A stretch of 64,000 nucleotides of DNA from positions 128,001 through 192,000 of the forward strand of contig CALSNU010000002.1 of assembly GCA_943787795.1 (NCBI GenBank), given 5' to 3'. Below are positions 21,866 to 61,533 of the stretch, in pieces. The notes beneath the pieces were generated by a model. The model worked only from the letters and a program-made list of their open reading frames with translations. It was not told the origin of the DNA and did not search any database. Origin of the DNA: an uncultured bacterium. Lineage in GTDB: Bacteria > Planctomycetota > UBA1135 > GCA-002686595. Position numbers and translations under genes: made by a program. Position 1 is the first letter of the stretch, and every line of letters starts with the position of its first letter.

Positions 21866-22960
21866 TCACTGGAACTGGACCGAGATCCCGTCCGTGAAGT
21901 TGGAGGTCGCGACGCCGCCGACGGCGTCCCGGTGCCAGGCCTGGAAGTTCCAGGTCTCTCCCGCCGCGATGGCCACAAGGCCCGTGGGAGTCGGGGTCTG
22001 AGTCAGGTCGAGCGCCAGGGTGAAGGCTCCCACCGCCCCGGAGCTCAGGATCTGCCCCGGGCCCACGTAGCGACCGATGGAGCCGCCGAGGCAGAGGTTG
22101 CCCTGGCTCCCTCCAGGATTGGCGACGAAGCCCTGGGCCTGGCTCGTCAAGAAGAACCCAAAGGCGTTCAGGGGGAGGTCACCAGCGACGAGAGCGAGGT
22201 TGTTCTGCGAGACCGAGGCGCTCCCCGTGACCTCGACGCTGCTCGGCGCGCCGGTGGAGTTCGCGGAGCCGGGGCTGCAGTACCGGGTCCCGATCGACCC
22301 CACCCCGTCGAGGATGAAGTTGTCGAAGCTGATGATGTGGTTGCCGAACCAGAACGCGCCGCCAAAGGGCCGGTCCATGGCGATGCCAATGTAATCCACG
22401 TCCTGGATGATCGCGTTCCAAAGGGCGTCTCCGGAGAGGCCGCCCAGGGGACTGCCAGGCAGCGCAGCGAGGTCCCAGCCAGCGGGCGTGGTGGTCGAAG
22501 AGCTCGGAATGGGAGTCGAGACGGTCGTCCACGGCGAGGAGCCGAACTGGAAGAGGTCGCCGGTGTACACGAAGGCCCAGGCATCGTCAGCGAAGTCCGT
22601 CCGGGTCCCACCGTCGTTCGCGATCACAAGGAACGGGCGGGTGCCGAAGTTGGAGGAGCCCACCTCCACCTGACGATCGAAGGTGAACGACGTCACGCCC
22701 AGCCCGCGGAAGTCGCCCTTCCAGGGCTGGTTCACCGCCCCCGGCACCACCATGGCCGCCGGCAGCTGGGACGCAGAGTTCTGCACCGTCACCTCGATCC
22801 GGCCACCGGGGTTCCCGCCCGTGGTCATGTGGACGCCCACCAGAGCGGGGTTGAACTCAACGCCCCAATCGTCCGTGTTGGTGACCTCGAAGTCCTCGGT
22901 GGCGACCTGGGCCGCGGCGCTTGAGCTGAGGGCGAGGGCGAGAAGGAGGGAGTTGCGCAT
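21866..22960 (-). CDS. Secreted protein with shared C-terminal YC..NSTG/GNLCLGG/FQAWxRD module
   Basis: Signal MRNSLLLALALSSSAAA; C-terminal ~140 aa matches paralogs at 55775 and 60454. Confidence 0.9.
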   Translation of the reverse strand: MRNSLLLALALSSSAAAQVATEDFEVTNTDDWGVEFNPALVGVHMTTGGNPGGRIEVTVQNSASQLPAAMVVPGAVNQPWKGDFRGLGVTSFTFDRQVEVGSSNFGTRPFLVIANDGGTRTDFADDAWAFVYTGDLFQFGSSPWTTVSTPIPSSSTTTPAGWDLAALPGSPLGGLSGDALWNAIIQDVDYIGIAMDRPFGGAFWFGNHIISFDNFILDGVGSIGTRYCSPGSANSTGAPSSVEVTGSASVSQNNLALVAGDLPLNAFGFFLTSQAQGFVANPGGSQGNLCLGGSIGRYVGPGQILSSGAVGAFTLALDLTQTPTPTGLVAIAAGETWNFQAWHRDAVGGVATSNFTDGISVQFQ

Positions 22961-23060
22961 GACGGAGGCCGGGAGGGGGGAGGGGACGGCGGAGAGAACA
23001 AGATAGTCCCCGGATAGCAGACTCGCCGACCCGGGGAGGCCTGGAGGCTATGGGCGTGAC

Positions 23061-24341
23061 CTAGAGTGCGACAGCCGGGCCAGAGACCGCGATGGCGCAG
23101 GCGTCCGGGTGGAGGTGCTCGGCGGCCACGCGCAGCACATCCTCGACGTTGACCGCAGCGAACTCCGCGGGGAGGCGCTCCAGATGATCGGACGGGAAGC
23201 CGTGAATCTCGGCGCTCACGAGGTACTGGGCGCGACGCGCTGCGCGCTCGAAGCCCATGGCAAAGGACCCCACGAGGTAGCTCTTGGCCACCGAGAGTTC
23301 CTCCTCGGGCACGGGCTCTTGGCCGATGCGCCGCATCTCCGTGGCGAAGCCGTCCAGGGCCGTGTGCACGTGCTCCGGGCTCGTTCCGATGTAGGCGCGG
23401 AACATGCCCGGCAGCTTTCCGGCGGTCCCGTGAATGTCTGCATGCACGGTGTAGGCGAGGCCAAGCTCGTCCCGCAGGATCCGTGTGATTCGGTTCGTGA
23501 ACCCCGGCCCGGTACCGAGCACGTGATCCATGACTGCCAGCGGCACGTAGTCAGGGTGCGCACGCTCGATCCCGAGGTGGCCCAGGTGCACGTGAACCTG
23601 CTGCCGGTCACGCTCAAAGGCCGCAGTGCGGCGCTCGATGGGCGGGAATGACGGCTTGGTCCGCTCGTGGGGTGCCCCCACGGGCACGGCTCCAAACGCC
23701 CGCTCCGCGTGGTCGCGGACCTGGTCCGGGTCGACGTCACCGACGACCGCGATCACCAGCCGCGAGCCGCACCAGTTCGCCGCGCGATGAGCGCGGAGGT
23801 CCGCGGCCGTGATGCGCGAGACCGACTCGAAGTCGCCGTAGGTGTTGCGGCCCAGGAAGTGCTGGTCGCCGTACACCAGGCGCTTGAACAGGATCCCCCC
23901 CTGGGCCCGCGGGTCATCCGCCTCCACCTCGAGGCGCGTCTTCATCCGCTGGAGCTGTCGCTCGATCATGGCGTCGGGGTAAGCCGCGTCCGTGACGAGC
24001 TCACCCAGCACCTCCATCAGGACTCGCCACGCCGTCCCGGCCACGGCTCCAGAGAGGCCCATGGCATCTCCGCTGACGCCACCTCCCTCGGGCTCAAGCA
24101 GCGCCGCGATGTCCTGGTCTGTGCGCGCGGACGTGCCCTGATCCGCGAAGGCTCCGGTGAGGTGAACCACCCCCTCCTTGCCTGCCGGGTCGAGCCCCGG
24201 ACCGCCCCGCACATGGACGCGCACCGCTGTCACCGCCGAGGACGGCCGACGATGGACGAGGAGCACCGCCCCGCAGGCGAGGACGAACCGCTCCCTCTCC
24301 ACTTCGATCCTGGGGGCGTCTGCCTTGGACTGAGCGCTCAT
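23061..24341 (-). CDS. M16 (pitrilysin) peptidase, non-catalytic subunit
   Basis: HLTGA in place of HXXEH; RILRDELGLAYTV; ATGA overlap with partner. Confidence 0.9.
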   Translation of the reverse strand: MSAQSKADAPRIEVERERFVLACGAVLLVHRRPSSAVTAVRVHVRGGPGLDPAGKEGVVHLTGAFADQGTSARTDQDIAALLEPEGGGVSGDAMGLSGAVAGTAWRVLMEVLGELVTDAAYPDAMIERQLQRMKTRLEVEADDPRAQGGILFKRLVYGDQHFLGRNTYGDFESVSRITAADLRAHRAANWCGSRLVIAVVGDVDPDQVRDHAERAFGAVPVGAPHERTKPSFPPIERRTAAFERDRQQVHVHLGHLGIERAHPDYVPLAVMDHVLGTGPGFTNRITRILRDELGLAYTVHADIHGTAGKLPGMFRAYIGTSPEHVHTALDGFATEMRRIGQEPVPEEELSVAKSYLVGSFAMGFERAARRAQYLVSAEIHGFPSDHLERLPAEFAAVNVEDVLRVAAEHLHPDACAIAVSGPAVAL

Positions 24342-25636
24342 GCGGTCACCTCCGCCGGCGCCGGCCGGGACCAGGCGACCACTCGCCGATCAGGGCGCAG
24401 GAGGCGCTCGCAGGTGGCCATGAGCGAGCTGGCGTTCACCGATGCACGCCGCGCCTCGACCTCGAGGGCGTCCTGCCAGCGGAGGTCCGTCGCGTACTCT
24501 CCCAGGGTCTCGGCCACGTCCGTCACGGTCTCCGAATCAAAGGCCTCGCTCGCAGCCAGGAGCTTCTGGGCGCGGGTCATCTCGCCTTCTGCGACGAGCT
24601 CCACGCAGAGGCGCGCCACCTCCTCATGGATCGCCGCCTCGAGCTGCTCCGTGTCGGCGCCATGGACCGCCTCGGCATAGATCCAGAAGCCGCCGCCGCG
24701 GGCGCGCGCATCGTTGTTGGCGGACACGCTGGTGGCGAGCCCCTCGTCGATCACGAGCCGGCGGTAGAGCCGAGAGAGCTTCCCGCTCGTGAGCACGGAG
24801 ACCACGACGTCCATGGTGAAGTCCACGTCGGAACCGAAGGGCCCGCCCGGATAGGCCACGATCATGCGCGACGCGTTGTCGTCCCACGTGGTCTCGATCC
24901 TCACCTCGCCGTCCAGCTCGACCTCGAGCGCGGGGTCGGGCCGCCCTTCGCCAACTGCCTCGTCTGCGGCTTGGTCCTCGATCGCGCCGAAGCGGGCCGC
25001 GACGGCAGCCAGGGCCGCCTCCGGCTCGACGTCGCCAGCGACCACCAGCGTCGCGTTGCCAGGCCGATAGTGACGCAGGTAGTACGCCCGCATATCGTCG
25101 GCCGTCATGGGCTCAAGGGTCTCGCGATACCCGATGACGGGCCGGGCGTAGGGGTGCTCGCCGAAGAGCGCCTCCGAGACCTTTCGACTCAGTGAGCGCC
25201 AGGGGTCGTCGAGTCCCATGGAGAGCTCCTCCAGGACGACCTTCTTCTCCGCCGCGAACTCCTCCGGATCGAGGAGCAGGCCCTGCATCCGATCGGCCTC
25301 GAGGTCGAGCGCTCGCTCCCAACGGTCCGAGGCGAACTCGAACCAGTAGGCGGTGTGGTCCGGGGTCGTGAAGGCGTTGTTGCTCCCACCCAACACCGTG
25401 GTCTCCAGGTCGATGGCGCCCTTGCCGTGCGCCTCCGTGCCCTTGAACATCATGTGCTCGAGGAAGTGGCTCACGCCCGCCTCAGGACCGGTCTCGTGCC
25501 GCGCCCCCACGCCGTACCAGACCATGACCGCCACGACGGGGTCGAGGTGACGCTCGGCGATCAGAACGCGCATCCCGTTGTCGAGCCTTCGCTCGTGCAC
25601 GGTTGCGCCGCAGTAGGTGGGGAGAGTCTTCGTCAT
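24338..25636 (-). CDS. M16 zinc peptidase, catalytic subunit
   Basis: LDNGMRV, GVSHFLEHMMFKGT, NAFT; start at ATG 25636. Confidence 0.93.
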   Translation of the reverse strand: MTKTLPTYCGATVHERRLDNGMRVLIAERHLDPVVAVMVWYGVGARHETGPEAGVSHFLEHMMFKGTEAHGKGAIDLETTVLGGSNNAFTTPDHTAYWFEFASDRWERALDLEADRMQGLLLDPEEFAAEKKVVLEELSMGLDDPWRSLSRKVSEALFGEHPYARPVIGYRETLEPMTADDMRAYYLRHYRPGNATLVVAGDVEPEAALAAVAARFGAIEDQAADEAVGEGRPDPALEVELDGEVRIETTWDDNASRMIVAYPGGPFGSDVDFTMDVVVSVLTSGKLSRLYRRLVIDEGLATSVSANNDARARGGGFWIYAEAVHGADTEQLEAAIHEEVARLCVELVAEGEMTRAQKLLAASEAFDSETVTDVAETLGEYATDLRWQDALEVEARRASVNASSLMATCERLLRPDRRVVAWSRPAPAEVTA

Positions 25637-25650
25637 GGATGTTCTGGTTC

Positions 25651-26784
25651 TCAACGGCGCCGTCGACCGCCGCGGCGGCGTGAGCCGCGAGCGCTGCCGC
25701 CGCTTCCACGCGCCCCCCGGGAGGAGCGCGCGCCACGAGCGGAGCCGCCGCCGCGCGTGGATCCGCCCGAAGAGCCGCGCCGAGAGCCCCCGCCCGAGCC
25801 ACGGTCGAAACCAGCGCCGCCCGAAGAGCGGCGCACAGGTGTCCTGGGCAGCCCCTCCGGAGCCCCGCCGGCCTCCAGCGACTCGTGCTCCGCGAGGAGC
25901 GCCTCCACCTCCTCGCGGCTGAGGGCGCGCCATTTGCCCTCGCGCAGGCCCCGGATGCCAAGGGGTCCGATCTGGGTCCGGGTGAGCGACGTCACCTTGT
26001 AGCCGACGCGCACGAAGATGCGGCGCACCTCTCGGTTGCGCCCCTCCTGGATCGTGACCTCCAGGGTGGAGCCTTTCGCGGTCCGCCGCTTCACGATCAC
26101 CCGGGCGCCCGCGGTGCGTCCCTCGGCGAGGTAGACGCCCTCGCGGATCTTCTGGACGGCATCGTCTGTGATCTGCCCCGGGATACGCACGAGGTAGGTC
26201 TTGGGGACACCGAAGCGCGGGTGCGCGATGCGCTCCGCGAACTCACCGTCGCTGGTGAGCAGCAGCAGCCCCTTCGACTCCTCGTCGAGGCGGCCCACCG
26301 TGAAGATGCGGCCCTTCTTCGGATCCGTGATCAGGTCGATGGCGCGCGGCTTGGTCTCCCGGATCTCGCTGGTGCAGACCACGCCGGCCGGCTTGTGAAG
26401 GATGTAGTAGCGGCGCTCGCGAGGGTCGGACTTGAGGATGACCCCGTCGACGTCGACCTCCTGGGTGCGGGGGTCGATCTTGGTGCCGAGCTCGGTGACG
26501 ATGTCTCCATCCACGAGCACCTTGCCGCCGAGGATCAGCTCATCGCTTCGACGACGGGAGGCGACCCCGTTGTCCGCGAGGAACTTGTTCAGGCGCACCA
26601 TCTCGGCGTCGCGCTTCGCGTCCCGCGCCGAGGACGATCGAGCGGGGAGTCGCTTGCCGCCGACCTGCTTCAGGCGCGGCCGTCCGCCCCTGGCGCTTCT
26701 GGTGCCTCTGCCGCCTCTGGCGCCGCTGCCGCTCCTGGCACCGCTGCCGCCCGAACCACGTCGGGCTCTTCTCGCTCTTCTCAT
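25651..26784 (-). CDS. RsuA/RluB-family rRNA pseudouridine synthase with R/G/S-rich tails
   Basis: S4 domain RLNKFLADNGVASRR, HKPAG, GRLD, EGRNREVRR. Confidence 0.92.
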   Translation of the reverse strand: MRRARRARRGSGGSGARSGSGARGGRGTRSARGGRPRLKQVGGKRLPARSSSARDAKRDAEMVRLNKFLADNGVASRRRSDELILGGKVLVDGDIVTELGTKIDPRTQEVDVDGVILKSDPRERRYYILHKPAGVVCTSEIRETKPRAIDLITDPKKGRIFTVGRLDEESKGLLLLTSDGEFAERIAHPRFGVPKTYLVRIPGQITDDAVQKIREGVYLAEGRTAGARVIVKRRTAKGSTLEVTIQEGRNREVRRIFVRVGYKVTSLTRTQIGPLGIRGLREGKWRALSREEVEALLAEHESLEAGGAPEGLPRTPVRRSSGGAGFDRGSGGGSRRGSSGGSTRGGGSARGARSSRGARGSGGSARGSRRRGGRRRR

Positions 26785-26809
26785 GTCTAGCTGTCCTGCC
26801 TCACGGCGG

Positions 26810-27838
26810 TCAGTTCCTGATGGTCGGTCGGGCCCGGAGGACCCGTAGCTCCCCGTCCGCGTCGACGATGCGCGCGTTGGGAAGGTCTGCAGGGAGCACC
26901 CATGTGCCCCCACGTGTGAGGGGAAACGCCTCGTCGTCGACTCCGTCGACGTCCAGGCGACCCGACCCAGAGAGTACGAGGATCGCCGTCGGGCGTCCCT
27001 CCGATGCCATCTCTTCCGGATCGTGAACGTCCAGAATGTCCACTTCGAAGCGCTCGCCCCTGCGCAGGGGGGCGATCTGATTGACCGAATCGGCTCCCCC
27101 TGAGCCCTGGAACTTCAGCGGCCCCGGGGGCTGTGGGGCCGCGCCGAAGTCGATCGAGCGCAGGGCCTCGTCCAGGTGCGTCTCCCGGGGACGCCCGTCG
27201 AGGCCGACCCGATCCCAGTCGTAGATCCTGTAGGTGGTGGTCGAATTCAGCTGCACCTCGGCCAGGACCAGCCCGGCCCCCATCCCGTGCACCACCCCGG
27301 GTGAGACGTCGACGCCGTCTCCCGCTCGGATCGGATATCGGCCGAGGAGATCGACCACGTCCGGCGTTGAGGCGCCGACGGCGAAGGACGTCGCGTCCAC
27401 CCCGTCGCCGAGGCCGAGGAAGACCTCCGCTCCAGGATCAGCGTCGAGCAGGTACCAGCACTCGCTCTTGGGCTGCACGCCCAGCTTGCGAGCGGCGGTC
27501 TCGTCCGGATGGACCTGGAGCGACAGGTTGGTGCGCGCCTCCACGAGCTTCAGCACGAGGGGGAACTGCTCGTCGCCATCGAGCGTGACCGCTCCCATCA
27601 GCGCCTCTCGCTCGGAGAGCATGAGCCCGCGGAGCGAACGCCCCGCGAACGGACCGCAGGAGATCACCGAGGCGTGACGGTCCTGGTCACTGACCAGGAG
27701 CACCTCGCCCACCGGTTCGGACTCGGGCCACGCAGACTCCGCCACATCCTCTGCGCAGAGGACGTCGCGCAGCGCGCTGCCACCCCAGACCTTGGGGACA
27801 GCATGCGGCTGGAGTCGGAGAGGGCGGGCGATGACCAT
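26810..27838 (-). CDS. Type I phosphomannose isomerase (cupin)
   Basis: KVWGG, FPLVLK, LSLQVHP, KSECWY, TTYRIYDWDR. Confidence 0.9.
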   Translation of the reverse strand: MVIARPLRLQPHAVPKVWGGSALRDVLCAEDVAESAWPESEPVGEVLLVSDQDRHASVISCGPFAGRSLRGLMLSEREALMGAVTLDGDEQFPLVLKLVEARTNLSLQVHPDETAARKLGVQPKSECWYLLDADPGAEVFLGLGDGVDATSFAVGASTPDVVDLLGRYPIRAGDGVDVSPGVVHGMGAGLVLAEVQLNSTTTYRIYDWDRVGLDGRPRETHLDEALRSIDFGAAPQPPGPLKFQGSGGADSVNQIAPLRRGERFEVDILDVHDPEEMASEGRPTAILVLSGSGRLDVDGVDDEAFPLTRGGTWVLPADLPNARIVDADGELRVLRARPTIRN

Positions 27839-28041
27839 GGGGCAAGCGCGAGAGCCTAGCCGCAGGGGTCAGGCCTCGGGGGCGCCAGGTCCACAGAACC
27901 CCAGTTCCACGCCGGCCCCGCGCCCGCTCCGCGCCGGCTCCACCTGGGCAGACCGGTTCGCAACCCCTGGAAGCCGCAGGTCCCGCCTGCGACGCTTCCA
28001 ACTGCAGGGTGTCCGTCCGCCGGACCTCAGCCTGAGGGAGC

Positions 28042-29766
28042 TCAGTCCGCGAGAAGACGCTGCGCCTCGGCGAGCGCCGTGGGCTCTGCGGCCCCACCGG
28101 CAATCATGTCCGCAATCTCGGCCACGCGGCCCTCGCCAGAGAGCCACTGGATCCGCGTCCGCGTCCGGCCCCCGTCCACCTCCTTGGAGACCTGGAGGTG
28201 CCGGGTCGCGCGCGCGGCGATCGCCGGCAGGTGCGTCACGCAGAGGACCTGGTGGTGCTCCCCGAGCCGCTCGAGGTTGCCAGCGACCTTCGGGCCGAGC
28301 CGTCCCCCGACACCAGCGTCCACCTCGTCGAAGATCAGCGTCGGCGTCGAGCGCCGGACGGCCAGCGCGCCGCGGAGCGCGAGGAAGATCCTGGCCGCCT
28401 CGCCGCCGGACGCGACCGCGCGCAGGGGCTGCGGGTCCTCGCCCGGATTCGCCGCGAGGAGGAGCTCCACGGCCTCAGCGCCGCTGACGCCGAACCGGCG
28501 GCGATCCGTCTCGGGGTCAGCGTCCGCTTCGGCGACATGGGGAACGAGCGCCATGGAGAAGCGCGCGCGCTCGAGGCCGAGCTCGCCGAGCCCGCCCTCG
28601 ACGGACTCTTGAAGCTTGGCGCCGAGGGCGCCGCGCGCCGCCGTCAATCGCCTCGAGGACTCGGCCAGGCTCCCGCGGGCTGCAGCGACCTCGACCTCCA
28701 GGGCCTCGCGATCCACCGACCCGTTCGCCATGAGGTCCAGCTCGTCCCGCAGGGACTGCAGCCGCTCTTCGAGGCCCGCCACGTCGGTGCCGTACTTGCG
28801 CTCCAGCCGCTCCAGCAGGCCCAGGCGATCCTCGACGTGCTGCAGGCGCGCGGGGTCGGCGTCTACTCCGTCGAGGAAGCCGCCCAGGGAACGGCACGCC
28901 TCCTCGAGCTGAAGAGACGCCTCCCGGAAGCCCGCCGCGGGCTCCTCGAGGTCGGTCACCCGGCTCGACCAGTCGGTCACGGTGCGCTCCGCCCGGCGCA
29001 GCAGGTCGAGCGCGCTGTCCTCGGCCTCGGAGAGCCCGTGAAGCGCGGACCCAAGCTCCGTTCCCAGCTCGGCGGCGTGGCGCAGCACGCTCCGCTCGGC
29101 GCGGAGGTTCTCCGCCTCGAGGGCCGAGGGGTTCGACTCCTCGAGCTCGCCCACCTGAAACCGGACGAGGTCGAGGCGCTGAAGCCGCTCCGACTCCCCC
29201 GCCTCGAGGTCTTCGAGCTGGGTCACCAGCTCGAGCCAGCGAGCGCGCCGCTCCCGATAGCCCTCCAGGGTGTCCTGCAGCCCGCCAAAGGCGTCCACCA
29301 GGCGGAGCTGCTCCACGGGCTCGAACAGCCGCTGGTGCTCGTTCTGACCGTGGATCTCCACCAGCTGCCCGGCGAGGCCGCGCAGCAGCTTCTGGGTCAC
29401 GGGGCGGTGATTGACGTGGGCCCGTGTGCGCCCGTCGCGGCCGATGGTCCGCGTCAGGATGAGCTCCAGCTCGTCCTCCTGCTCCCGCTCCTCCAGGGCC
29501 TCGGGGAGATGCTCCGCGAGCCAGCGTCCCACGAGCTCGCCGTAGTCATCGAGAGGGAGGACAAACCGGCCCTCCACTCGAGCCCGCTCGGCTCCCTTGC
29601 GGACCATGGAGGCCCGTGCCCTGCGCCCCAGGAGCAGCTCGAGGGCGTCGACGAGGAGGCTCTTGCCCGCGCCGGTCTCCCCCGTCACCGCGTTCAGCCC
29701 TGTTCCAAATTCCAGCGCCGCCCGTTCAAAGAGGGCGAGGTCCTGCAGCGTGAGTTCAACCAGCAT
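28042..29766 (-). CDS. recN: DNA repair protein RecN
   Basis: TGETGAGKS, IHGQNEHQ, ANPGE..PL..VASGGE, FDEVDAGVGG, CVTHLP. Confidence 0.97.
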   Translation of the reverse strand: MLVELTLQDLALFERAALEFGTGLNAVTGETGAGKSLLVDALELLLGRRARASMVRKGAERARVEGRFVLPLDDYGELVGRWLAEHLPEALEEREQEDELELILTRTIGRDGRTRAHVNHRPVTQKLLRGLAGQLVEIHGQNEHQRLFEPVEQLRLVDAFGGLQDTLEGYRERRARWLELVTQLEDLEAGESERLQRLDLVRFQVGELEESNPSALEAENLRAERSVLRHAAELGTELGSALHGLSEAEDSALDLLRRAERTVTDWSSRVTDLEEPAAGFREASLQLEEACRSLGGFLDGVDADPARLQHVEDRLGLLERLERKYGTDVAGLEERLQSLRDELDLMANGSVDREALEVEVAAARGSLAESSRRLTAARGALGAKLQESVEGGLGELGLERARFSMALVPHVAEADADPETDRRRFGVSGAEAVELLLAANPGEDPQPLRAVASGGEAARIFLALRGALAVRRSTPTLIFDEVDAGVGGRLGPKVAGNLERLGEHHQVLCVTHLPAIAARATRHLQVSKEVDGGRTRTRIQWLSGEGRVAEIADMIAGGAAEPTALAEAQRLLAD

Positions 29767-30027
29767 CGTCCAGATGAAGATCGCACGGCCCCCCCGCCCG
29801 TTGCAACCACCATCGCCACGTCCGGGCCCCGACTCATGGGCGAGGCCCCGGTGGCGCTCTCCCCCCTGTCCGCCCCCGGACGCCGCTCGTCGGCGACAAG
29901 TCCTGATCAGCTGCAGACCCCCAAGGGGCAGAAGGCCACCAAGGAGCCGAGACTCCGAAGAGCAGAGGACCCCCAGGAGCTGGAGACCCCGAGCGGCGGC
30001 AGGCCCTGCCTGCTAGCCTGAGGAGCC

Positions 30028-30843: not shown

Positions 30844-30893
30844 GCACCGGCCTCCGGCGTTGATGCTCGGCGCTGCACCTTGGCAGCCGCCTC

Positions 30894-33622: not shown

Positions 33623-34225
33623 ATGCGCGATTCGTCTCACCAGCCCTCAGCGATGCCTCCTCTCCTGGAGCGTCCGCTCCAACGCAGCCCGTCCGGCGCC
33701 GGCTTCGCGCTCATCGAGATGGTGATCGCAGCCTCGATCCTGATGATCGGCGCCCTCGGCTTCCTGCAGCTCTTTACCGCCGCCGCCGATCTCAACGGGG
33801 CCAACCGGGAGGGGGCCGTCGCGCGCGAGGCCGCCCAGCGGGCCCTCACACGACTCGCCGCCTTCGAGCCCCGTGAGAGCCTCTTCGCGCTCCACAACGA
33901 GGACCCCGCTGATGACCCTGCGGGCGAGCCCCTCGCGGGCTTCCTGCTCTCGGGCTTCGAGGTCGACGGGCTCTCGCCACGGGCCAACGACCCCGACGGC
34001 CTCGTGGGGCGCGTGATCTTCCCGATCGATCCCATCACCGGCGCCCTGCACCCCGAGTTTCAGTCCTCTGACTTCTCCGTTGCTCCCGCCCTCATTGGCG
34101 CCGGCGTCTCGGCGGAGGTGGCCCAGGCCTATGGCCTGTTGCTCCCCATCGCCGTCCGCCTCGAGTGGCAGCACAAGGGCCGACCCGTCCAGCACGAGAT
34201 CGTCACGCTGATCTCACCTCGATGA
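33623..34225 (+). CDS. Prepilin-type minor pilin (PilV/GspI-like)
   Basis: Class III signal G|FALIEMVIA; start could be 33653. Confidence 0.85.
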   Translation: MRDSSHQPSAMPPLLERPLQRSPSGAGFALIEMVIAASILMIGALGFLQLFTAAADLNGANREGAVAREAAQRALTRLAAFEPRESLFALHNEDPADDPAGEPLAGFLLSGFEVDGLSPRANDPDGLVGRVIFPIDPITGALHPEFQSSDFSVAPALIGAGVSAEVAQAYGLLLPIAVRLEWQHKGRPVQHEIVTLISPR

Positions 34226-34887
34226 AGCACCTCCCGAAGACGTCCTTCTCCGGGGTTCGCGGGGGCTTCACCCTGCTCGAGGTCCTGATCGCGCTCACGG
34301 TCCTCGCCCTGCTGCTCTCCTCCGTCGGGCTCCTCGCGTCCGGCAGCAAGAACGCCTTCAGCCGCGGCACGACCGTCAGCGCCATGGAGCTGCGAACAGG
34401 GCTCACCAGCAGCGTCATCCGGAGCGAGCTCTCCCTCGCCCTGGCCGGCTCGCTCATGCCAGAGATCCAGTCCGGCCAGCGGGTAACGGAGCTCACCTAC
34501 GTCCGCGCCTTGGGCTGGGAAGGCGAGACCACCATCACGACCGCGCCGCGGACCCTGCGCTTCGAGATCGACCCCACGGAGGCCAACAACGGCGCCGATG
34601 ACGACGGTGACGGGCTCATCGATGAGGGCATCCTCGTGCTGATCGAGGATGTGGGGCTCCCCACCGAGCACCGCCGCGTCCTCGCCCGCGGCCTCGCGGA
34701 GTACGCGGAGGGAGAGGTCTTCAACGGCGTTGACGACAACGGTGACGGCCTGGTGGACGAGTCAGGCTTCGCCATCGAACGCATGGGCGCCGCTCTCGAG
34801 GTCACCGTGACCCTCGAACAACGACCCCCCGGGCGCGAAGAGACCATCCAGAGAACCCTGCGGAGCTCGATCCTCCTGCGAAACTGA
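34222..34887 (+). CDS. Prepilin-type minor pilin (PilW/GspJ-like)
   Basis: G|FTLLEVLIA; two NG.DD.GDGL.DE motifs; ATGA overlap with upstream gene. Confidence 0.88.
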   Translation: MKHLPKTSFSGVRGGFTLLEVLIALTVLALLLSSVGLLASGSKNAFSRGTTVSAMELRTGLTSSVIRSELSLALAGSLMPEIQSGQRVTELTYVRALGWEGETTITTAPRTLRFEIDPTEANNGADDDGDGLIDEGILVLIEDVGLPTEHRRVLARGLAEYAEGEVFNGVDDNGDGLVDESGFAIERMGAALEVTVTLEQRPPGREETIQRTLRSSILLRN

Positions 34888-36170
34888 TGAAGCTAACACG
34901 CCCCCTGAACCACGATGCGCCGACGACATCACGCGAAGCGAGCCGGTCCGGCTCGGTGCTCGTGACCGTCATCATCTTCGTGATGGTCCTCGCAGGACTG
35001 GGGAGCTCGATGCTCCGCGTTGACCTCTCGATCTCCAACAGTCGCCGCTCCGATGGCGCTGCGCAGCGGGCCTACTTCGCGGCCGAGTCCGGGATCGATG
35101 AGGCGTTCATTCTCCTCCGCTCGCGGCTGCTGGCACCTGAGGAAGGCGACACGGTCACCGTCGGCAGCGAGCAGATCCCGAGGACCCTCGCCAACTCAAG
35201 CTACTGGGCCGAGGTGACGCGGCTGGATGCCTGGCGCTTTCAGGTCATCGCCACCGGCGCCTGCGACGACGAGCGAAAGCGCCAGGAGTGCGTCTTCACC
35301 ACGGCCCCGGACGGCTTCTTCCAATACGCGGCCTTCGCGAGGGACGGCCTCTCCCTGGGCGACGGCTCGGTGACGAACAGCTACGACCCGACGCTGGGCA
35401 CCTTCGCCAGCCAGTCCTCCCGTGGCAACGGAGGCGTGGGAGCCAACGGCAACGTGACGCTGGGCGGGAACACGCTCATCAACGGGGACGCGGTCACGGG
35501 AGAGGGGGGCTCGATCATCGAGAACGGCGCCAATGTGGTCATCACCGGCGACCGAGGCTCCCTCGACGAGGGCATGACGTTCCCGCCCATCGAGCCGCCC
35601 GTGGTCACGTCGAGCGGTCCGCTGGACGCCACGGCGGACTCCACCATCGGGCCGGGTCTCATCGGCTTCGACGAGGTCTCGGCGGAGGGCGGTACGACGC
35701 TGACCATCGAGGGTCCCGCGCAGATCGTCATGTCGAGCTTCACCCTCGGCGGGGGGAGCTCGCTGGTCATCGACAGCTCCAACGGGCCCGTCGAGATCTA
35801 CACCGCGGGCGACTGGGACATCAGCGGCGACTCGGCGGTCCGGACCACCAGCGAGTCCGCGCGCGAGTTCCAGCTCTTCATCGGGGGTGACACCGACAGC
35901 GGCGCCGACCCCGCTACGGTGAGCTTGAACGCCAACACGGTGCTCCACGGGGCGATCTACGCCCCCGACGCTTCCATCAGCGTGCCGGCTGACTTCGAGC
36001 TCTTCGGGAGCCTGATTGCGCGCAGCCTCACCTTCGGCGAGGCCGCTCGCCTGCACTTCGACGAGTCGCTCCTCTACGAGTCTGACGAGGAGACCCTCTC
36101 GCTCGAGACGCTGATCTGGCGCCCCGTCTCCTCAGACGGGACCCCCGAGTCAGGCACGCCAGGCGCCTGA
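34887..36170 (+). CDS. PilX/GspK-like protein with C-terminal beta-helical domain
   Basis: G|SVLVTVIIF lacking E5, AYFAAESG; SYD...G, GAIYAP, LHFDESL; TGATG overlap. Confidence 0.85.
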   Translation: MKLTRPLNHDAPTTSREASRSGSVLVTVIIFVMVLAGLGSSMLRVDLSISNSRRSDGAAQRAYFAAESGIDEAFILLRSRLLAPEEGDTVTVGSEQIPRTLANSSYWAEVTRLDAWRFQVIATGACDDERKRQECVFTTAPDGFFQYAAFARDGLSLGDGSVTNSYDPTLGTFASQSSRGNGGVGANGNVTLGGNTLINGDAVTGEGGSIIENGANVVITGDRGSLDEGMTFPPIEPPVVTSSGPLDATADSTIGPGLIGFDEVSAEGGTTLTIEGPAQIVMSSFTLGGGSSLVIDSSNGPVEIYTAGDWDISGDSAVRTTSESAREFQLFIGGDTDSGADPATVSLNANTVLHGAIYAPDASISVPADFELFGSLIARSLTFGEAARLHFDESLLYESDEETLSLETLIWRPVSSDGTPESGTPGA

Positions 36171-45398: not shown

Positions 45399-45403
45399 GC
45401 GCC

Positions 45404-47466: not shown

Positions 47467-47485
47467 CGGGGCGCCGCCGCCCCGC

Positions 47486-52703: not shown

Positions 52704-52855
52704 CAGCGACCTCGCTCCCCTGAAGGGGCGCCCGGCCCAGCGATCCGCTCGGAGCCGGGGTCTCAGCGGAGCGGCCTGGGAGTAGGAGTGGCGAGCCAGC
52801 TCCTTCCCAGCGCCCGCGTACTCCGAGGCGCGGCCGCCTTGAGCGTGCACCGCGC

Positions 52856-53698: not shown

Positions 53699-53741
53699 GT
53701 GGAGGGGAACGGTGGAGGGGAGCCCGGCGGCGAGCTCCGGT

Positions 53742-55226
53742 TCAGTGTGCGGCAAGGGGAGCGTCGCTGGCCAGCTTGTCGTGCTCCGCGAACTGATCAA
53801 TCATGGTCGCGCTCGCCTCCGAGAGGCCCACGAGCTCCACCGTGGTGCCCTCGCGTCGGAACTTGACCACCACTCGGTCCAGCGCCGCGACGGCAGAGAT
53901 GTCCCAGAAGTGAGCCTCGCTGACGTCGATCTCGACGTGCTCGACGACCTCCTTGAAGTCGAAGGCGTTGATGAAGCGCTCCACCGAGGCGAAGAAGACC
54001 TGGCCCTGGACGATGTAGCGACGGCCCAGGCCGTCCAGGGTCGGCCGCGTCTTGACCCCGAAGAGCCGCCGGACCTTGCTGGCGAAGAACACCCCGCTGA
54101 GCAGGACACCGACGAGCACGCCCTGGGCGAGGTCATGGGTCCAGACCACGACCACCACGGTCGAGACCATCACGATCGAGGAGTGCGAAGGATGGCTCCG
54201 CAGCTTCTTGATCGAGGTCCAGCTGAAGGTACCCACGGACACCATGATCATCACCGCCACCAGCGCTGGCATCGGGATGCGGGCCACGAAGGGACCCAGG
54301 ACCACGATCAGGAACAGCAGGACGCTACCGGCGACGAGGGTGGAGAGCCGGGTGAATCCACCTGACTTCACGTTGATGACGGACTGGCCGATCATTGCGC
54401 AGCCGCCCATCCCGCCGAAGAAGCCCGTCACGAAGTTGGCGACCCCCTGCCCCATGGCCTCCCGGCGCTTGTTGCTCGGCGTGTCCGTGAGGTCGTCCAC
54501 GATCTGTGCCGTCAAGAGAGACTCGAGCAGCCCCACCGCGGCCATCGTGGCCGAGTACGGCAGCACGATCCGCAGCGTCTCGAGGGTGAAGGGCACCGAC
54601 GGGAGGGCGAACCAGGGCAGCGCCGAGGGCAGCTCCCCCATGTCGCCCACCCGGTTGACCGGGAGGTCGAAGCCGATGGCCACGGCCGTGAGCGCGACGA
54701 TCGCCACCAGGGGCGAGGGGATCGCGCGGGTCAAGAGCGGAAAGAGGTAGATGACGCCGAGGCCCGCAGCCACGAGCGCATAGGTCACCCACGTCACCCC
54801 CGTCAGCTCGGGGACCTGGGCCAGGAAGATCAGGATCGCGAGGGCATTGACGAAGCCGGTGATCACCGACCGCGACACGAATTGCATCAAGCGGTTGATC
54901 TTCAGCAGCCCCGCCGCGATCTGGATCAACCCCATCACGACCGTCGCGGCGAACAGATACTCCACGCCGTGGTCCCGCACGAGCGGCCCGATCAGCACCG
55001 CGATCGCCGCGGTGGCGGCCGAGATCATGCCCGGACGTCCGCCCACGAAGGCCGCCAGGACCGCGATGGTGAATGACGCGTAGAGGCCCACCTGCGGGTC
55101 CACACCCGCGATGACGGAGAAGCCAATGGCCTCGGGAATGAGCGCGAGCGCGACGACGATGCCCGCGAGCACATCGCCCCGGACGTTGGAGAGCCAGTCG
55201 CGGCGAAGCGACGTAGTGGTGATCAT
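53742..55226 (-). CDS. SulP family anion transporter with STAS domain
   Basis: [52 protein letters not shown]; start at ATG 55226. Confidence 0.95.
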
Positions 55227-55468
55227 CGGATCGGGGCAAGCGCCCACAAAACAGCGGCGCGCCGCCCCCGGGGACATCCCCCAGGCCGTGCCCGCCGCGA
55301 AAAAGCGCGGGGAGACTACGCGCGCGGCATCCCGGCCCGGGCCAGCAATCCGGTGGAACTGCGCGCTGCGGCAGCGCTGATCGAGAACGGGACCGGGCAC
55401 ATCGGAGCCCAAGCTCGGGAGCTGAACGGACTCCCTCGGTGGAGACTCACTCGCAGGAGAGGCCCGCT

Positions 55469-55546
55469 CAGCGGCCCTATTCACCGCTCCCATTCAGCGG
55501 CCCCATTCAGCGGCCCCATTTGCTGGCCCCATTTGCTGGCCCCACT
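55469..55546. repeat. 13-bp tandem repeat x6 (cagcggccccatt drifting to tgctggccccatt)
   Basis: Units at 55469, 55482, 55495, 55508, 55521 and 55534. Confidence 0.9.
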
Positions 55547-55668
55547 CACCGGTCCGAGACCGAGGGCCGCTTCGAACCCATCCTGGGGGACTCCGCAGCG
55601 CGTTCCCGAGGGAGGCCCGGTCAGCGGGTCGGCGGGCCCAAGCCGTGCCTGGCCTGATGAATAGCCGC

Positions 55669-55697
55669 GGGGCGAGCACCGCAAAGGCGCTCGCCCC
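55669..55697. terminator. Hairpin downstream of the 55775 gene
   Basis: ggggcgagc...gctcgcccc 9-bp stem. Confidence 0.45.
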
Positions 55698-55774
55698 GTC
55701 CAGGCGGTATCAGCCGCTCAGCCGGTTCCCGCTCGCACCCCGAAGAGGCGCGAGGGGTCGGGCTCGAGGTTGGC

Positions 55775-56755
55775 TCACTGGAACATGATCTCGTAGCCGT
55801 CCGTGAAGTTGCTCGTCGCCGTCCCGGCCACAGCGTCCCGGTACCACGCCTGGAAGCTCCAGGTCTCGCCCGCCGACACGGCGACGAACCCGTTGGGTTG
55901 CGGGATCTGGGTGTTGTCAGCGGCGAGGGAGATCTCACCCGTCGCACCCGAGTTCTGGATCTGGCCAGCGCCGACGTAGCGGCCGATCGATCCGCCAAGG
56001 CAGAGGTTGCCCTGGCTCCCCCCCGGGTTTGCAACCGCACCCTGGGTCAGGGACGTCAGAAAGAAGCCGAACGAGTTCAACGGGAGGTCGCTCGCCTCGA
56101 GGACCAGGTCGTTGCTCGCCACAGAGTTGGAGCCTGAGGCGCTCATGGTCCCGGCGACTCCGGTCGAGTTCACCACCGCCGTGCAGTAGTTGGTCCCGAC
56201 GCTCGGCGCCGACCCCGTGCAGAACGATCCGTTCCAGACTCGCGGGGTGAACACGCTCCCCCCGACGAAGGGGGCCGAGCAGCTCGACCCCAGCTCGATG
56301 GTCATGTTGCCGTCCGTGAAGAGCTGGTTGGCTCCGGTGCCGTTGGTGTAGGGGTTGCCTCCAACGGTGTAGACGATGGCGACGCCCGCGACACCGCCAG
56401 GCATGAAGTCAAAGGGTGCGACGAGCGGCACAGGCGTCGGAGTGCCCTGGCCCGCGGCCAGCGCGGTGCCGTCTCCCTGGGCGACCAGGGTCCATCCCGT
56501 CGGGTCCTGCTCGAAGCCGGCATAGCTCCCTGATCGGGTCCACACCTCCAGGTTGACCGGCGACCCGGCCGCCACGTTGAAGTTGGCCTCGAGGCTCACA
56601 ACCGTGGTCGGGTTGAGCACCGTGACATCCATGTAGTTGGCCCAGCCGGTGGCACCGCCGTTGTTACTGACGAAGGTGGTCTCGAGGCAGGTCTGGGCGC
56701 TGGACGCTGCGCTGCAAAGCACAGCGGCGGAGATCGAGAGGAGCAGTCGCTTCAT
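55775..56755 (-). CDS. Secreted protein with shared C-terminal module
   Basis: Signal MKRLLLSISAAVLCSAASSA; GTNYC..NSTG...GSQGNLCLGGSIGRY...FQAWYRD...SNFTDG. Confidence 0.9.
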   Translation of the reverse strand: MKRLLLSISAAVLCSAASSAQTCLETTFVSNNGGATGWANYMDVTVLNPTTVVSLEANFNVAAGSPVNLEVWTRSGSYAGFEQDPTGWTLVAQGDGTALAAGQGTPTPVPLVAPFDFMPGGVAGVAIVYTVGGNPYTNGTGANQLFTDGNMTIELGSSCSAPFVGGSVFTPRVWNGSFCTGSAPSVGTNYCTAVVNSTGVAGTMSASGSNSVASNDLVLEASDLPLNSFGFFLTSLTQGAVANPGGSQGNLCLGGSIGRYVGAGQIQNSGATGEISLAADNTQIPQPNGFVAVSAGETWSFQAWYRDAVAGTATSNFTDGYEIMFQ

Positions 56756-57086
56756 GATTGGATAGACAGGTTGGGGTAAGGAAGACTCGTTTCACCACTC
56801 TAGGTACTTCCCACCACCTCGCTCGCTGGGCGGGCAACGAACCCGCAGCGATCGCTGCTCAGGCTCCTCAGAGCAGCTAACGCGGCGTGCTCACTGCCGC
56901 TGACCGGGGTCTTGATTCGGAGCACCCGCTGCCGGCTGAGTCCCCCGCTCGGGCCCTTGAAGGCCTTTGCATTCCGTTCCTGGCGAATTCCGGACGGGGG
57001 GGTACCGAGCCCCATGAGACTCGGAGTCCTGGGCGGTCGGATCCGTCACCTCGGTCGCGGGAGCAGCGTCATGACCCCGCGATCCG

Positions 57087-57710
57087 ATGACCCGAGCCCA
57101 GCAATTCCAGGACCACCTCTTCACGGAGCTTGCGTTCCGCGCGCGACACCTCAGCCCCCTGCGCCGGCTGTATCGCCAGATGCTCTCCGACTGCCTGGGA
57201 GAGCAGTTCTCGTTTCATGCCTCCCCAGGCCTGCACGCCAACATGACCTGGCACTACGCGACGAGCCCGCCCACGCTCGCCGCGTTTCATCGGTGCCTGA
57301 CGGACAGCGATCTCGGCGAGAGCCTCTCCATCGTCCACGGTGATTCAAGACTCCTCGCGGCCTGCTTTGTCGTCGTCGAGGGCGACACCCCTGTCCTCGA
57401 CTATCACGTCGACTACGGACAGGCCGAGATCCCTGCGGGCGTCACGGGGACCATGCTGACTCCCCTCATCGCCTTCGAACCGCCGTTTGGCCACCTCGAC
57501 TGCCGAGACGGCACGCGCGACTTCGAGTACCGCTACAAGGTCGGCGACGCGATCCTCTTCGACGGCAAGTTCGAACACCGATCACAGGCAGCTGGATCCG
57601 TCGCCAATCAGGCGCGGGTCCTGGTCTCCTGGAGCATCGCGACCGAGGACACCCGGTACAGCTTTGCCATCAAGCGGGTCATCGACAGTCAGATGCCCCC
57701 CCTCGACTGA
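57087..57710 (+). CDS. Hypothetical protein, 2OG-Fe(II) oxygenase-like double-stranded beta-helix
   Basis: YHVDY...YKVGDAILFDGKFEHRS...RVLVSW (HxD...H...R). Confidence 0.65.
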   Translation: MTRAQQFQDHLFTELAFRARHLSPLRRLYRQMLSDCLGEQFSFHASPGLHANMTWHYATSPPTLAAFHRCLTDSDLGESLSIVHGDSRLLAACFVVVEGDTPVLDYHVDYGQAEIPAGVTGTMLTPLIAFEPPFGHLDCRDGTRDFEYRYKVGDAILFDGKFEHRSQAAGSVANQARVLVSWSIATEDTRYSFAIKRVIDSQMPPLD

Positions 57711-57807
57711 TCCTGAATCGGCGGCCGCCGCGGCCAGGCGCCGCTCCGATGGGGCCTCCCTCCGCAAAACGAGACCAGCCCCTCGAGCGCGGCGAGAGCC
57801 GCGCCCA

Positions 57808-57840
57808 GAGAGGACGCGGAGAGGACGCGGAGAGGACGCG
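57808..57840. repeat. 11-bp tandem repeat x3 (gagaggacgcg) between convergent genes
   Basis: Exact copies at 57808, 57819 and 57830. Confidence 0.9.
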
Positions 57841-57872
57841 CCCGCGCAATGAATCATCCCCCGTCCCCTCGC

Positions 57873-60305
57873 TCAGAGCGTCCGCCGCGCGCGTACGCGG
57901 CCGCTACGATCTCGAAGAAGAATGGTCTCGCCGATGGCGAGGTTGCCGTCGAAGGGTCCCACGACGAAGTGCCCCTCACCGCCCGTTGGCGCCACGGCGC
58001 GGCTGCGGAAGTCACCCGGGCTCGCGCTGATGAAGACGCGGCCCCCCGCCTCCACCACCGTGCCCGGGGGCAGCGTCATCTCCACGCCACCCTCCACGCG
58101 ATAGCCCGAGAGGTCCGTCGACCAAGGGGCGTCGTTGGTGATCTCGATGAACTCCTCGTCGTTGTTCCCCGACACCGGTGAGGCATCGAAGGCCGTGATC
58201 CGAAGGCGCGTCCGGCCTGACTCGGGCCCAGGAACAAGGCCCCCGTTGGCCTCGAGCTGCGACCCGTAGAGGTGAAGCCGTCGGTTGGCCACGTAGTCGG
58301 TGAGCAGCCGATCCTTGGCCTGCTGGAAGTTCCTGGGTGTTCCCCAGGTGGGCACCCCCCAGCGGGCCTCATCCAAGGCGACGTCCGCGGCCATCAGCGC
58401 GTAGGCCTCGTTGACCAGATCCTCGAGGTAGCGATCGGCGGCGGGGGTCCCCGGCTCCTGCAGGAGGTCGTCGCAGACCGTCCGCAGCCGGCGAACGTAC
58501 ATCTCCCGCAGGCGCGGGCTCTGGTAGATCCGATTGATCAACCGGTTCCAGAAGTTGTCCGAGGTGCGGTGCGCGCTGTCCCCGAACAACACGTGGCTGT
58601 ACTGAGGGTGGTTGTACGTGATCCGGTCGTTCAGGACCCCGCCCGACGGGTTGTAGTTACGGCCCCAGGTCAGGTCCTTGTCCCAAGGGATGAACTGCCA
58701 CTCGCCGTCCCCGTCCGAGTCCCTGTACAGGAAGTGATTCTTGTGGAGGTGATCGTTCTCGTGGATCAACCAGCACCCGACCAGGTAGCTGATCACCCGC
58801 GGCACATCGAGCACGTCAAAGAGGTAGTCCTCGATCCCCGCACCCCCCTGAACCACCGTCGAGACAAACGCCGTGAGGTCCGCGTTGTTCTCGTTGGTGC
58901 GGGTCACCTTCTCGACGCTGGAGGTCCCGCTGGTGAACGGGTTGTACATCTTGTACAGAGCCCCGTCCGGGTCCTCTCCCACACGCTCCAGGAAGAACCG
59001 GTCCAGCTCCTCCACGAAGGTCTGGACGGAGAAGAACTCGCCGTTCTGCTGGAGGCGCACCGGGAACGACTTCGAGACCAGCGCGCCCACCTCCTCGTAC
59101 ATGCCGTAGCCCAGGTATTGCCGCAGGTGAGCCTTGTCGGCCCAGTGAGTGTTGAGGTTGGCCTCGTCGATCGGCGCATCGAAGATGGCCAGCTCCGGGC
59201 GGTCGTCCGGGTTGAAGTCAAACTTGTAGCTCTTGCGCGGATACCCCGCCGAGCTCTGCCCGCGCCGGTTCACCTTGACGTTGTCGTAGAACTCGCCCTC
59301 GATCCAGACGGAGCAACGCGTCCCGTTGCCCGTGTTGGCGGCCCCGGGGTTCTGCACAAACCACTCCCAGACGTCCAGCGGGCTCGCCGCATGGCTGGGG
59401 TCCGCGACGACCGTCCCGAACCACTCGGGCGAGCCAAGCGGCTCGAGGAAGAGCGGTAGCGCGGTCGAGCTGATCCCGTCCGCCACCGTGACGCGGTAGC
59501 GGACCATGTCCCCGGGCCCACTCACGCCGGCGGGGATCACGCCCGTGTACACACCGTCGCCAGCCACGAGGTCGGGGGCCACGCCGCCATCGGTCATCGG
59601 CGCTGTCTGGACCCCGCCGTACATGACGCGGTAGTCCAGGTCCACGATGGGCGCCGAGGAGGTCGTCGTCGGCGCATGCACCGACACGACGAGGTCCTCT
59701 TGGTCAGTGGGTTGCTGGGGCGTGTGGGTGACACCCCAGACCGGCGGCGCGCCGACCGAGTTGGCGCCGCCCGGAGTCGGTGCGGTGAAGAGTCGCTCCA
59801 CGGCGAGCGGGCCGGGGTTGAAGGACAGCCCGTAGGAGACGTCCTCCTCCTGGGGTGGGTACTCCGGGGCGTACTCCGTGACGATCGAGCCTGTCGAGTT
59901 CACCAGGGCGAGGTACTCCCCGCCGCCAGAGAGCTTGAAGTTGGTATGCAGGGGGCCGGCAGGGTCCCGGCGATCCTTGTCCGAGGCGAAGACCACGAGG
60001 TACCCCCCGTCCGGGAGCACGGTCCCGGGCCCAAAGACCCAGAGGGCGAGATCGCCTGAGTCGTCGGTCAGCGCCCAGCCAGACAGGTCCACCGCACCGG
60101 CCCCGGGGACGTTGTGGATCTCGATCCAGTCCGGCCGGTCACCATCCTCGTCCTCGAGCCCGCCGTCGTTGCGGGCGAGAAACTCGGTGAGGGCAGGGCC
60201 CGCTCCGAGCGCGGCGCCAGACGATTGGCTGAAGGCCAGAGCCTGGTCGGAGAAGAACGAGACGGTCAGGAGGCCGACGGCGAGGAGCGTTTGGATGAGG
60301 CGCAT
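57873..60305 (-). CDS. Secreted CotH-kinase-family protein with lamin-tail domains
   Basis: EFLARN..DEDGD..DWIEIHN, HTNFKLSGGGE; RRGQSS, KSYKF, DHLHKN, PWDKDLTWG; C-terminal EFIEITN..DLSGY. Confidence 0.9.
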   Translation of the reverse strand: MRLIQTLLAVGLLTVSFFSDQALAFSQSSGAALGAGPALTEFLARNDGGLEDEDGDRPDWIEIHNVPGAGAVDLSGWALTDDSGDLALWVFGPGTVLPDGGYLVVFASDKDRRDPAGPLHTNFKLSGGGEYLALVNSTGSIVTEYAPEYPPQEEDVSYGLSFNPGPLAVERLFTAPTPGGANSVGAPPVWGVTHTPQQPTDQEDLVVSVHAPTTTSSAPIVDLDYRVMYGGVQTAPMTDGGVAPDLVAGDGVYTGVIPAGVSGPGDMVRYRVTVADGISSTALPLFLEPLGSPEWFGTVVADPSHAASPLDVWEWFVQNPGAANTGNGTRCSVWIEGEFYDNVKVNRRGQSSAGYPRKSYKFDFNPDDRPELAIFDAPIDEANLNTHWADKAHLRQYLGYGMYEEVGALVSKSFPVRLQQNGEFFSVQTFVEELDRFFLERVGEDPDGALYKMYNPFTSGTSSVEKVTRTNENNADLTAFVSTVVQGGAGIEDYLFDVLDVPRVISYLVGCWLIHENDHLHKNHFLYRDSDGDGEWQFIPWDKDLTWGRNYNPSGGVLNDRITYNHPQYSHVLFGDSAHRTSDNFWNRLINRIYQSPRLREMYVRRLRTVCDDLLQEPGTPAADRYLEDLVNEAYALMAADVALDEARWGVPTWGTPRNFQQAKDRLLTDYVANRRLHLYGSQLEANGGLVPGPESGRTRLRITAFDASPVSGNNDEEFIEITNDAPWSTDLSGYRVEGGVEMTLPPGTVVEAGGRVFISASPGDFRSRAVAPTGGEGHFVVGPFDGNLAIGETILLRDRSGRVRARRTL

Positions 60306-60453
60306 GGTGGTTGATCCAGGGATGTCTCGATCATGGCACGGCCAGGTCGAGAGCGCCGCGCTGAAGGCCACTTCCGAGCGAGAATGAGAGGTCCCGTGCT
60401 ACCTTGGGAACAAGCCGAGCGGACGTCTTCGATCCCCCCCCGCCGCTGATCCC

Positions 60454-61533
60454 ATGCGCGCCTCCACCAACATCATCCTGTGGGCCTGCGGCCTCTTTGT
60501 CGCACCCTCGGCCACCGCACAAGTCGGGCTCAACCTCGACTTTGGACCGTCCGACGTGCACGGCACCCCGGGCCCAAGCGAGGGCGCCGCGGCCCAGGTC
60601 GGTGGCGCGTGGAACGGCGTCGACACGGACGCCCTCTCCGGCGGCACGTTCCCGGTCACGATCGCAGGGCTCGTGGACACGAGCGGCGTACCGACCCCTG
60701 TCACCCTGGTCATCAACGACCTCGGCACCGGGCTCCAGAGCTTCCTCTACGACGACCCCGCCACCGTCGGAGGCGACGACGCGCTCCTCGACGACCTCGC
60801 CTTCTTCGGGGGCGCGGCCACCCTCGAGATCCGGGGGCTCGCCGCGGGCCAGTACGACATCTTCACCTACGCCGCCGTCCCGAGCGGCGCCGACCACCGG
60901 ACCCGCGTCCGGATCCCGAGCTCGTCCGACCCTATTCAGACGGTGGGCGGCGACTTCTCTGGCGGGTACCAGGCTGGGGTGACTCACGCCCGGCACGCGG
61001 TCAACGTCGCGCCTGGCAGCGCCGTCACCCTCCAGCTCAACGTCGCGGCAGAGTTCATGTCACTCAACGGGATCCAGGTGGTTCCGTTCGGTGCCACGGG
61101 CGACCTCGGCGCCCGCTACTGCACACCGGGGGCGACCAACTCCACGGGCTTCCCCGGCGAGGTCTCTGCCTTCGGGAGCCCCCGCCGCGTCGACAACGAC
61201 GTCGCGCTCACCGCGAGTTCGCTCCCGACCAACACCTTCGGCTTCTTTCTGACCAGCCAGGATCAGGGCTTCACCGCCACCCCTGGCGGGAGCCTGGGCA
61301 ACCTGTGCCTGGGAGGCGCCATCGGGCGCTACGTCGGAGCGGGTCAGATCCTCAACTCCGGCACCAACGGATCCTTCACCCTCCCCCTCGATCTCGCGGC
61401 CACGCCGACACCCACCGGGCTCGTGTCCATCACCGCGGGCGAGGCCTGGAACTTCCAGGCCTGGTATCGGGACTCGCTCCTCGGCATCCCGCTCTCCAAC
61501 CTGACGGACGCGCTGGTCCTCACTCTGCTCTGA
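60454..61533 (+). CDS. Secreted protein with shared C-terminal module
   Basis: Signal ...APSATA; LNLDFG; RYC..NSTG...GNLCLGGAIGRY...FQAWYRD...SNLTDA. Confidence 0.9.
   Translation: MRASTNIILWACGLFVAPSATAQVGLNLDFGPSDVHGTPGPSEGAAAQVGGAWNGVDTDALSGGTFPVTIAGLVDTSGVPTPVTLVINDLGTGLQSFLYDDPATVGGDDALLDDLAFFGGAATLEIRGLAAGQYDIFTYAAVPSGADHRTRVRIPSSSDPIQTVGGDFSGGYQAGVTHARHAVNVAPGSAVTLQLNVAAEFMSLNGIQVVPFGATGDLGARYCTPGATNSTGFPGEVSAFGSPRRVDNDVALTASSLPTNTFGFFLTSQDQGFTATPGGSLGNLCLGGAIGRYVGAGQILNSGTNGSFTLPLDLAATPTPTGLVSITAGEAWNFQAWYRDSLLGIPLSNLTDALVLTLL

Follow-up and report, generated by a model that had tools for sequence, protein, structure and literature searches.

A very large, uncatalogued terminal domain family on unrelated exported-type proteins of Planctomycetota, with a probable role in envelope localisation

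The C-terminal domain (CTD) of type IX secretion system (T9SS) cargo (Por_Secre_tail, PF18962/TIGR04183) is an Ig-like antiparallel beta-sandwich of 67-108 residues; the available part of PMC11285876 gives structures from PorU, PorZ, RgpB and HBP35 and a conserved lysine in the last strand. PEP-CTERM tails and their partner exosortase (PF07589 and PF09721; PMC1569441) form a second system, in which a motif, a transmembrane (TM) segment and a basic end follow many unrelated signal-peptide proteins in one genome, and autotransporters (type V secretion) end in a transmembrane beta-barrel. Here we describe a module of about 140 residues shared by four exported-type proteins in a 64,000-nucleotide stretch of an uncultured planctomycete genome (contig CALSNU010000002.1, positions 128,001 to 192,000; hereafter the window). 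The module defines a genuine domain family, very large and uncatalogued, and very probably helps to locate proteins at the envelope. As judged from sequence, it appears to work in the manner of known terminal domains (T9SS, PEP-CTERM, dockerin-type), yet matches none of them at that level.

The preliminary description, made from the letters of the window, had proposed that four open reading frames (ORFs) with dissimilar passengers end in this common module, and its coordinates, strands and motif are correct (Table 1). The consensus motif is present in the three close copies; in an alignment of the last 143 residues, copies 2 and 3 are 66% and 62% identical to copy 1. Because DNA identity among the three is just 64-69%, we regard them as old paralogous modules and not as a recent duplication. 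The four passengers show no mutual similarity by BLAST (best E 0.67), and that of P0001 has no match in Pfam or NCBIfam. The fourth copy is divergent, as had been suggested: a hidden Markov model (HMM) from the three close sequences did not catch it, and it was gained on iteration.

Table 1. Module proteins of the window and their module copies
Feature	Position (strand)	Extent	Remarks
P0001	21866-22960 (-)	364 aa	exported-type; signal-peptide-like residues 1-17; C-terminal module
Module copy 1, in P0001	21866-22297 (-)	aa 222-364 + stop	copy used for fold prediction
P0002	55775-56755 (-)	326 aa	exported-type; passenger aa 21-182, found elsewhere with PEP-CTERM and other tails
Module copy 2, in P0002	55775-56206 (-)	aa 184-326 + stop	
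P0003	60454-61533 (+)	359 aa	exported-type
Module copy 3, in P0003	61102-61533 (+)	aa 217-359 + stop	
P0004	17599-19368 (+)	589 aa	exported-type; divergent, more Cys-rich module
Module copy 4, in P0004	18946-19368 (+)		divergent; HMM iE 5e-18

The large genome-wide family that these copies had been taken to imply is present in the source genome (G000; 4.71 Mb, about 70% GC, 85% complete). Iterated over its six-frame ORFs, the three-copy HMM converges at 104 ORFs, and in 102 of these the match ends no more than 2 residues before the stop. A model built from distant relatives only regains 103 of these and adds 5, and reversed-protein controls give no matches. Among called genes the module occurs in 105 of 3,312 (about 3%), which places the family at 104-109 members. 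Of the 14 largest tail clusters listed for this genome, no other forms a C-terminal family independent of its passengers; the remaining large clusters listed resemble, by inspection, ordinary enzyme or regulator families. A few of the 104 ORFs are short and apparently frameshifted fragments (C3:534787, C4:699687, C6:187156, C1:288822, C6:155450 and C1:676649), either assembly errors or pseudogenes. Two 620-residue proteins (C4:661668-663524 and C4:709581-711443) share identical last 60 residues and weakly match the widest profile (E 2e-4), a possible recent duplication of a far module variant.

The clearest indication of what the module does comes from the passenger of P0002, for which the length range searched yielded 62 homologues. 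The module forms the tail of 15 of these by an independent profile, and of a further 7 by a profile that had these 7 among its seeds. The other homologues end in PEP-like TM tails (16), IPTL-like TM tails (13), dockerin-like tails (3), FxDGFE tails (3) or something else (5, one of them with Pfam PEP-CTERM), where the dockerin-like and FxDGFE labels are motif readings under names that we presume to apply. Pfam assigns PF07589 to 7 homologues and the IPTL-CTERM family PF18203 to 2, and a further 2 are named PEP-CTERM proteins by a source. No homologue among the 62 combines the module with a PEP motif. The module thus fills the same slot on the same passenger as known membrane-anchoring tails and is mutually exclusive with them; this exchange of tags is the strongest evidence, drawn from sequence comparison, that the module may have a localisation job. 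The passenger of P0003 speaks neither for nor against such a role, with the module on all 10 homologues found.

The module was said to lie always at the extreme C-terminus. This is nearly so: it is C-terminal in 149 of 150 database representatives listed, in 78 of 80 related loci (the other 2 are cut by contig ends) and in 29 of 32 members from the fetched part of G328, a genome outside the source genome's class. In the clear exceptions it stands immediately behind a signal-peptide-like N-terminus; these are 1 of 105 source-genome genes, 3 of 32 in G328 and 1 of the 150 representatives (P0137). No protein among the 150 has two copies. In these sets the module was found singly, at either end of the mature chain. 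The sole full-length source-genome gene with an N-terminal module (C6:243723-244541, minus strand) encodes a signal peptide, the module and then a CxxCH c-type cytochrome domain.

Its cargo is exported-looking and diverse. A crude rule finds a signal-like N-terminus in 81 of 100 module genes, against 1,040 of 2,594 other genes of the source genome, and several that fail the rule are late start calls. None of the 100 has a lipobox or Tat motif, and later transmembrane helices are almost absent. Ninety-four passengers fall into 60 clusters. A Pfam scan of 109 of the 150 listed representatives left more than half without a match and otherwise returned LamG, FG-GAP, reprolysin, GBD_T9SS_assoc, PPC, C-type and legume lectins, BNR, Kelch and trypsin-like domains, with the best matched stretches outside the module. 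Passenger types thus include lectins, beta-propellers, proteases and c-type cytochromes; CxxCH occurs in five module genes, three of them cytochrome c peroxidase-like (the one scanned matches CCP_MauG). Divergent modules are retained on orthologous passengers in G328, for instance on those of cytochrome c peroxidase-like type and on one encoded next to a TonB-dependent receptor locus.

No catalogue we searched names this domain, as the preliminary description had expected. Profile searches with the 4 whole window proteins (E<=1) and with 59 modules against Pfam and 40 against NCBIfam (E<=0.1) found no module match, T9SS families PF18962, TIGR04183 and TIGR04131 included; nor did the module match a PDB sequence, and our literature searches listed no description of it. 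A structure model of copy 1 predicts an Ig-like antiparallel beta-sandwich, with no Foldseek match at E<=0.001, no helices of dockerin or SLH type, and no cohesins among the 50 fold matches listed. The two cysteines first called invariant are common but not universal. Of 100 full-length source-genome copies, 93 have both and 2 have neither, a paired pattern compatible with a disulfide, and copy 4 has phenylalanine in place of the second. Across the broad family Gln119 is the sole invariant residue, with Gly25, Gly90 and Asp124 nearly so; the consensus ends in SNFTDGLEVTF. Identity is 60-70% within the genus and drifts widely between families. Modules carry 0.27 lysines each and a median net charge of -4 (100 modules). 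Their DEKR content is 8%, compared with 16% in their own passengers, and the module is the less charged part in 89 of 93 proteins of the source genome and in 24 of 25 of G328. A hydropathy window above 1.6 occurs in 1 of 100, in line with the proposed lack of a TM helix.

At the level of sequence the module stands apart from each described system. It shares a predicted fold with the T9SS CTD but is longer, lacks the conserved lysine of the last strand, has a frequent putative disulfide pair and occasionally stands at the N-terminus. Like PEP-CTERM tails it is borne by many unrelated proteins per genome; unlike them it is a folded, soluble-type domain that lacks a PEP motif, TM helix and basic end. 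A beta-sandwich of 140 residues, as modelled, is also not a type V barrel, and Pfam autotransporter matches were none. The GC-type dockerin tail of Phycisphaerales proteins is similar in circumstance, being a terminal domain that is class-restricted, sits on numerous exported proteins of planctomycetes and presumably docks non-covalently, and a dockerin-like tail swaps with the module on the P0002 passenger (3 of 62, by motif). A dockerin is a duplicated calcium-binding loop-helix, whereas the module is predicted to be all-beta and has no sequence similarity to it; for dockerin- or SLH-type anchors in general, the module has no Pfam match and we identified no cognate cohesin or receptor. A match to a characterised domain, frequent internal or signal-less occurrence and restriction to a few copies had been named beforehand as grounds for dropping the idea of a sorting tag, and we found none of the three.

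The suggestion of a lineage-specific sorting or anchoring system gains from the tag exchange; its "lineage-specific" part was too narrow. A profile of 59 source-genome copies matches 20,089 clusters at 50% identity (E<=0.001), so that a profile for this module would annotate some 20,000 protein clusters at once. Within Planctomycetota, which our distribution counts cover, all 12 same-genus genomes searched have matches (67 to at least 150 each). The narrow profile matches 98 of 151 genomes of the source genome's class, and a broader one 49 of 251 genomes from the phylum, largely in whole-family blocks (4 of the 49 have 1-3 matches only, among 16 scored candidates). Single-contig or near-complete relatives have 30-113 matches, and one genome (G028) has 7. 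A still more distant module profile (probability of homology to the first, 97.6) found nothing in 31 of 33 earlier-negative genomes and one weak partial match in each of the others. The family thus covers many families in and beyond the source genome's class. Related loci come mostly from metagenome-assembled genomes of Planctomycetota; the few labelled as other groups are taken to be binning or labelling errors. One uncatalogued domain, carried by about 3% of genes, likely marks much of the surface proteome in these abundant, mostly uncultured planctomycetes. Its occurrence in a cultured isolate, Saltatorellus ferox Poly30, opens cleavage, location and binding partner to direct test.

We favour, at a probability of a little under one half (about 0.45), the reading that the module is an uncleaved, non-covalent anchor that would hold proteins at the cell envelope after export. 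We prefer it because the module, a large and charge-poor domain, can also directly follow the signal peptide, and because we found no sortase-type enzyme co-occurring with it in the source genome. Placement at the opposite end of the chain, by analogy, can fit a docking domain. Such proteins would be exported by Sec and lose their signal peptides, then fold in the periplasm, with a Cys7-Cys68 disulfide where both residues are present. The folded protein would cross the outer membrane, most plausibly through a secretin, a route favoured because we found no other translocon: either the type II system or a locus with two secretins and ExbBD. Finally, the charge-poor, hydrophobic surface of the module may bind a receptor in the outer membrane, be it a lipid, a glycan or a protein. 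The literature available to us gives no settled account of how Planctomycetota bring folded proteins to the outer membrane or past it.

Several points weigh against the anchor. The signal peptides were called by the crude rule given above. The cytochrome c peroxidase-like type is often periplasmic, so that part of the cargo may not pass the outer membrane at all. Low module charge may merely mirror a tightly packed, disulfide-bonded fold, and C-terminal placement at about 98% is equally expected of an export signal. The absent machinery is ambiguous as well. SprA (PF14349) was found in none of five genomes, the C25/PorU-type peptidase (PF01364) in neither the source genome nor G012, and the PEP-CTERM tail (PF07589) nowhere in the source genome, all with silent controls, and absences there are weak because the genome is 85% complete. 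C25 peptidases are present in 3 of 5 module-bearing genomes (G040, G131 and G328; that of G328 has no recognisable module), and exosortase matches in 3 of 5 (G012, G040 and G131). Exosortase (PF09721) was not found in the source genome or G328, both about 85% complete, in a search whose control was detected in 1 of 14.

That the module is instead an export signal like the T9SS CTD, read by an outer-membrane translocon (the type II system or the twin-secretin/TPR/ExbB/ExbD machine) and maybe cleaved later, is possible but on balance unlikely. This would be partly compatible with an anchor, differing in that the module's job would be translocation and not retention; the N-terminal placements speak against a strict C-terminal signal. 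The source genome has three Omp85-family matches and six secretins. Of the secretins, three belong to a type II operon, to a Tad locus and to a type IV pilus locus, one stands alone, and two form a flanking pair. The pair lies in a conserved locus (C5:96,000-110,000; L171:10455 to L172:8818; also L180-L185) with the order: a secretin with N-terminal tetratricopeptide repeats (TPR), a 996-residue TPR protein, a 363-residue protein without Pfam match, ExbB, ExbD, ExbD, the second secretin and a HAD hydrolase, shared by G000, G040, G131 and G026. The literature search found no description of it. An MreB/salactin-like actin gene (by Pfam) adjoins the HAD gene in G131 (L182:5481-6557) and G026 (L185:2434-3522), and is possibly the MamK-like actin mentioned in the available text of 10.1101/817700.

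Phylogenetic profiling, proposed for finding a co-occurring processing enzyme or translocon, gave no specific partner. Of 47 module-positive genomes, 45 match the secretin pair at E<1e-200, but matches to it also occur in 30 of 33 hand-picked module-negative ones, in 24 of them at E<1e-100; at E<=1e-40 the locus occurs in 76 of 80 Planctomycetota searched. Its TPR gene occurs in 40 of 49 module positives versus 57 of 202 negatives. Being common in module-negative genomes too, the locus is an available route without specificity for the module; it could equally serve uptake or motility. STT3 gave no match above cut-off. The source genome and 1.93 of 2.38 Mb of G328 have 127 exported-looking genes in common, and the 50 scanned included no unknown barrel or sortase.

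It is improbable that the module builds a self-assembling, S-layer-like lattice or coat that shows a mosaic of passengers and replaces a rigid wall in shape-shifting cells. The very large number of copies (as many as 150+ scored matches in a genome), the 4.3% of called residues that lie in module genes, and an acidic, lysine-poor, hydrophobic composition are as such a coat would have them, and conservation in the genus with wide drift beyond it fits co-evolving self-contacts. The available text of a Saltatorellota preprint reports fragile, shape-changing cells (10.1101/817700), but "S-layer" occurs nowhere in its main text as available. Some genomes moreover have few copies, as G028 does, and we saw no abundant subunit made of the module only or of several copies of it. 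It is likewise improbable that the module is an accessory domain for ligand binding or stabilisation with no sorting role, such as a carbohydrate-binding module that ties secreted or periplasmic enzymes to substrate or biofilm matrix: binding modules are usually internal and in tandem, whereas this one is single-copy, terminal and exchangeable with membrane-anchor tails, and is borne by cargo with no relation to carbohydrate (reprolysin, trypsin-like, cytochrome c peroxidase). A long shot is that the module marks cargo for a proton-driven export machine not yet described, the twin-secretin/giant-TPR/TPR/ExbB/ExbD/ExbD locus, which would parallel T9SS in function, be built on secretins and read class-specific terminal domains, the module being the tag of the Saltatorellus-related clade; if true, this would be a new secretion system class.

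Some neighbouring genes deserve mention. The P0004 gene lies directly downstream of a Ser/Thr kinase with WD40 repeats (by Pfam; window 14182-17466, plus strand), which is divergent from a sigma-factor-like ORF recognised by inspection (13442-13960, minus strand). The P0003 gene is divergent from an exported CotH kinase with lamin-tail domains (by Pfam; 57873-60371, minus strand) that has no module. Three ORFs in tandem at 33623-36170 (plus strand) have, by inspection, pilin-like or pseudopilin-like N-termini. Elsewhere in the source genome, an exported HEAT-repeat protein with HGG-x-Y after its signal peptide (C6:239254-241443, plus strand; also L214:5485-7563) is conserved with its neighbours in G328. 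Just past the window end, at C2:198,400-211,000 (also L244), lies a TonB-dependent receptor/DUF3450/ExbBD/TonB/TPR locus whose 646-residue module protein has lost both module cysteines; both locus and module persist in G328 (59% identity over 498 residues).
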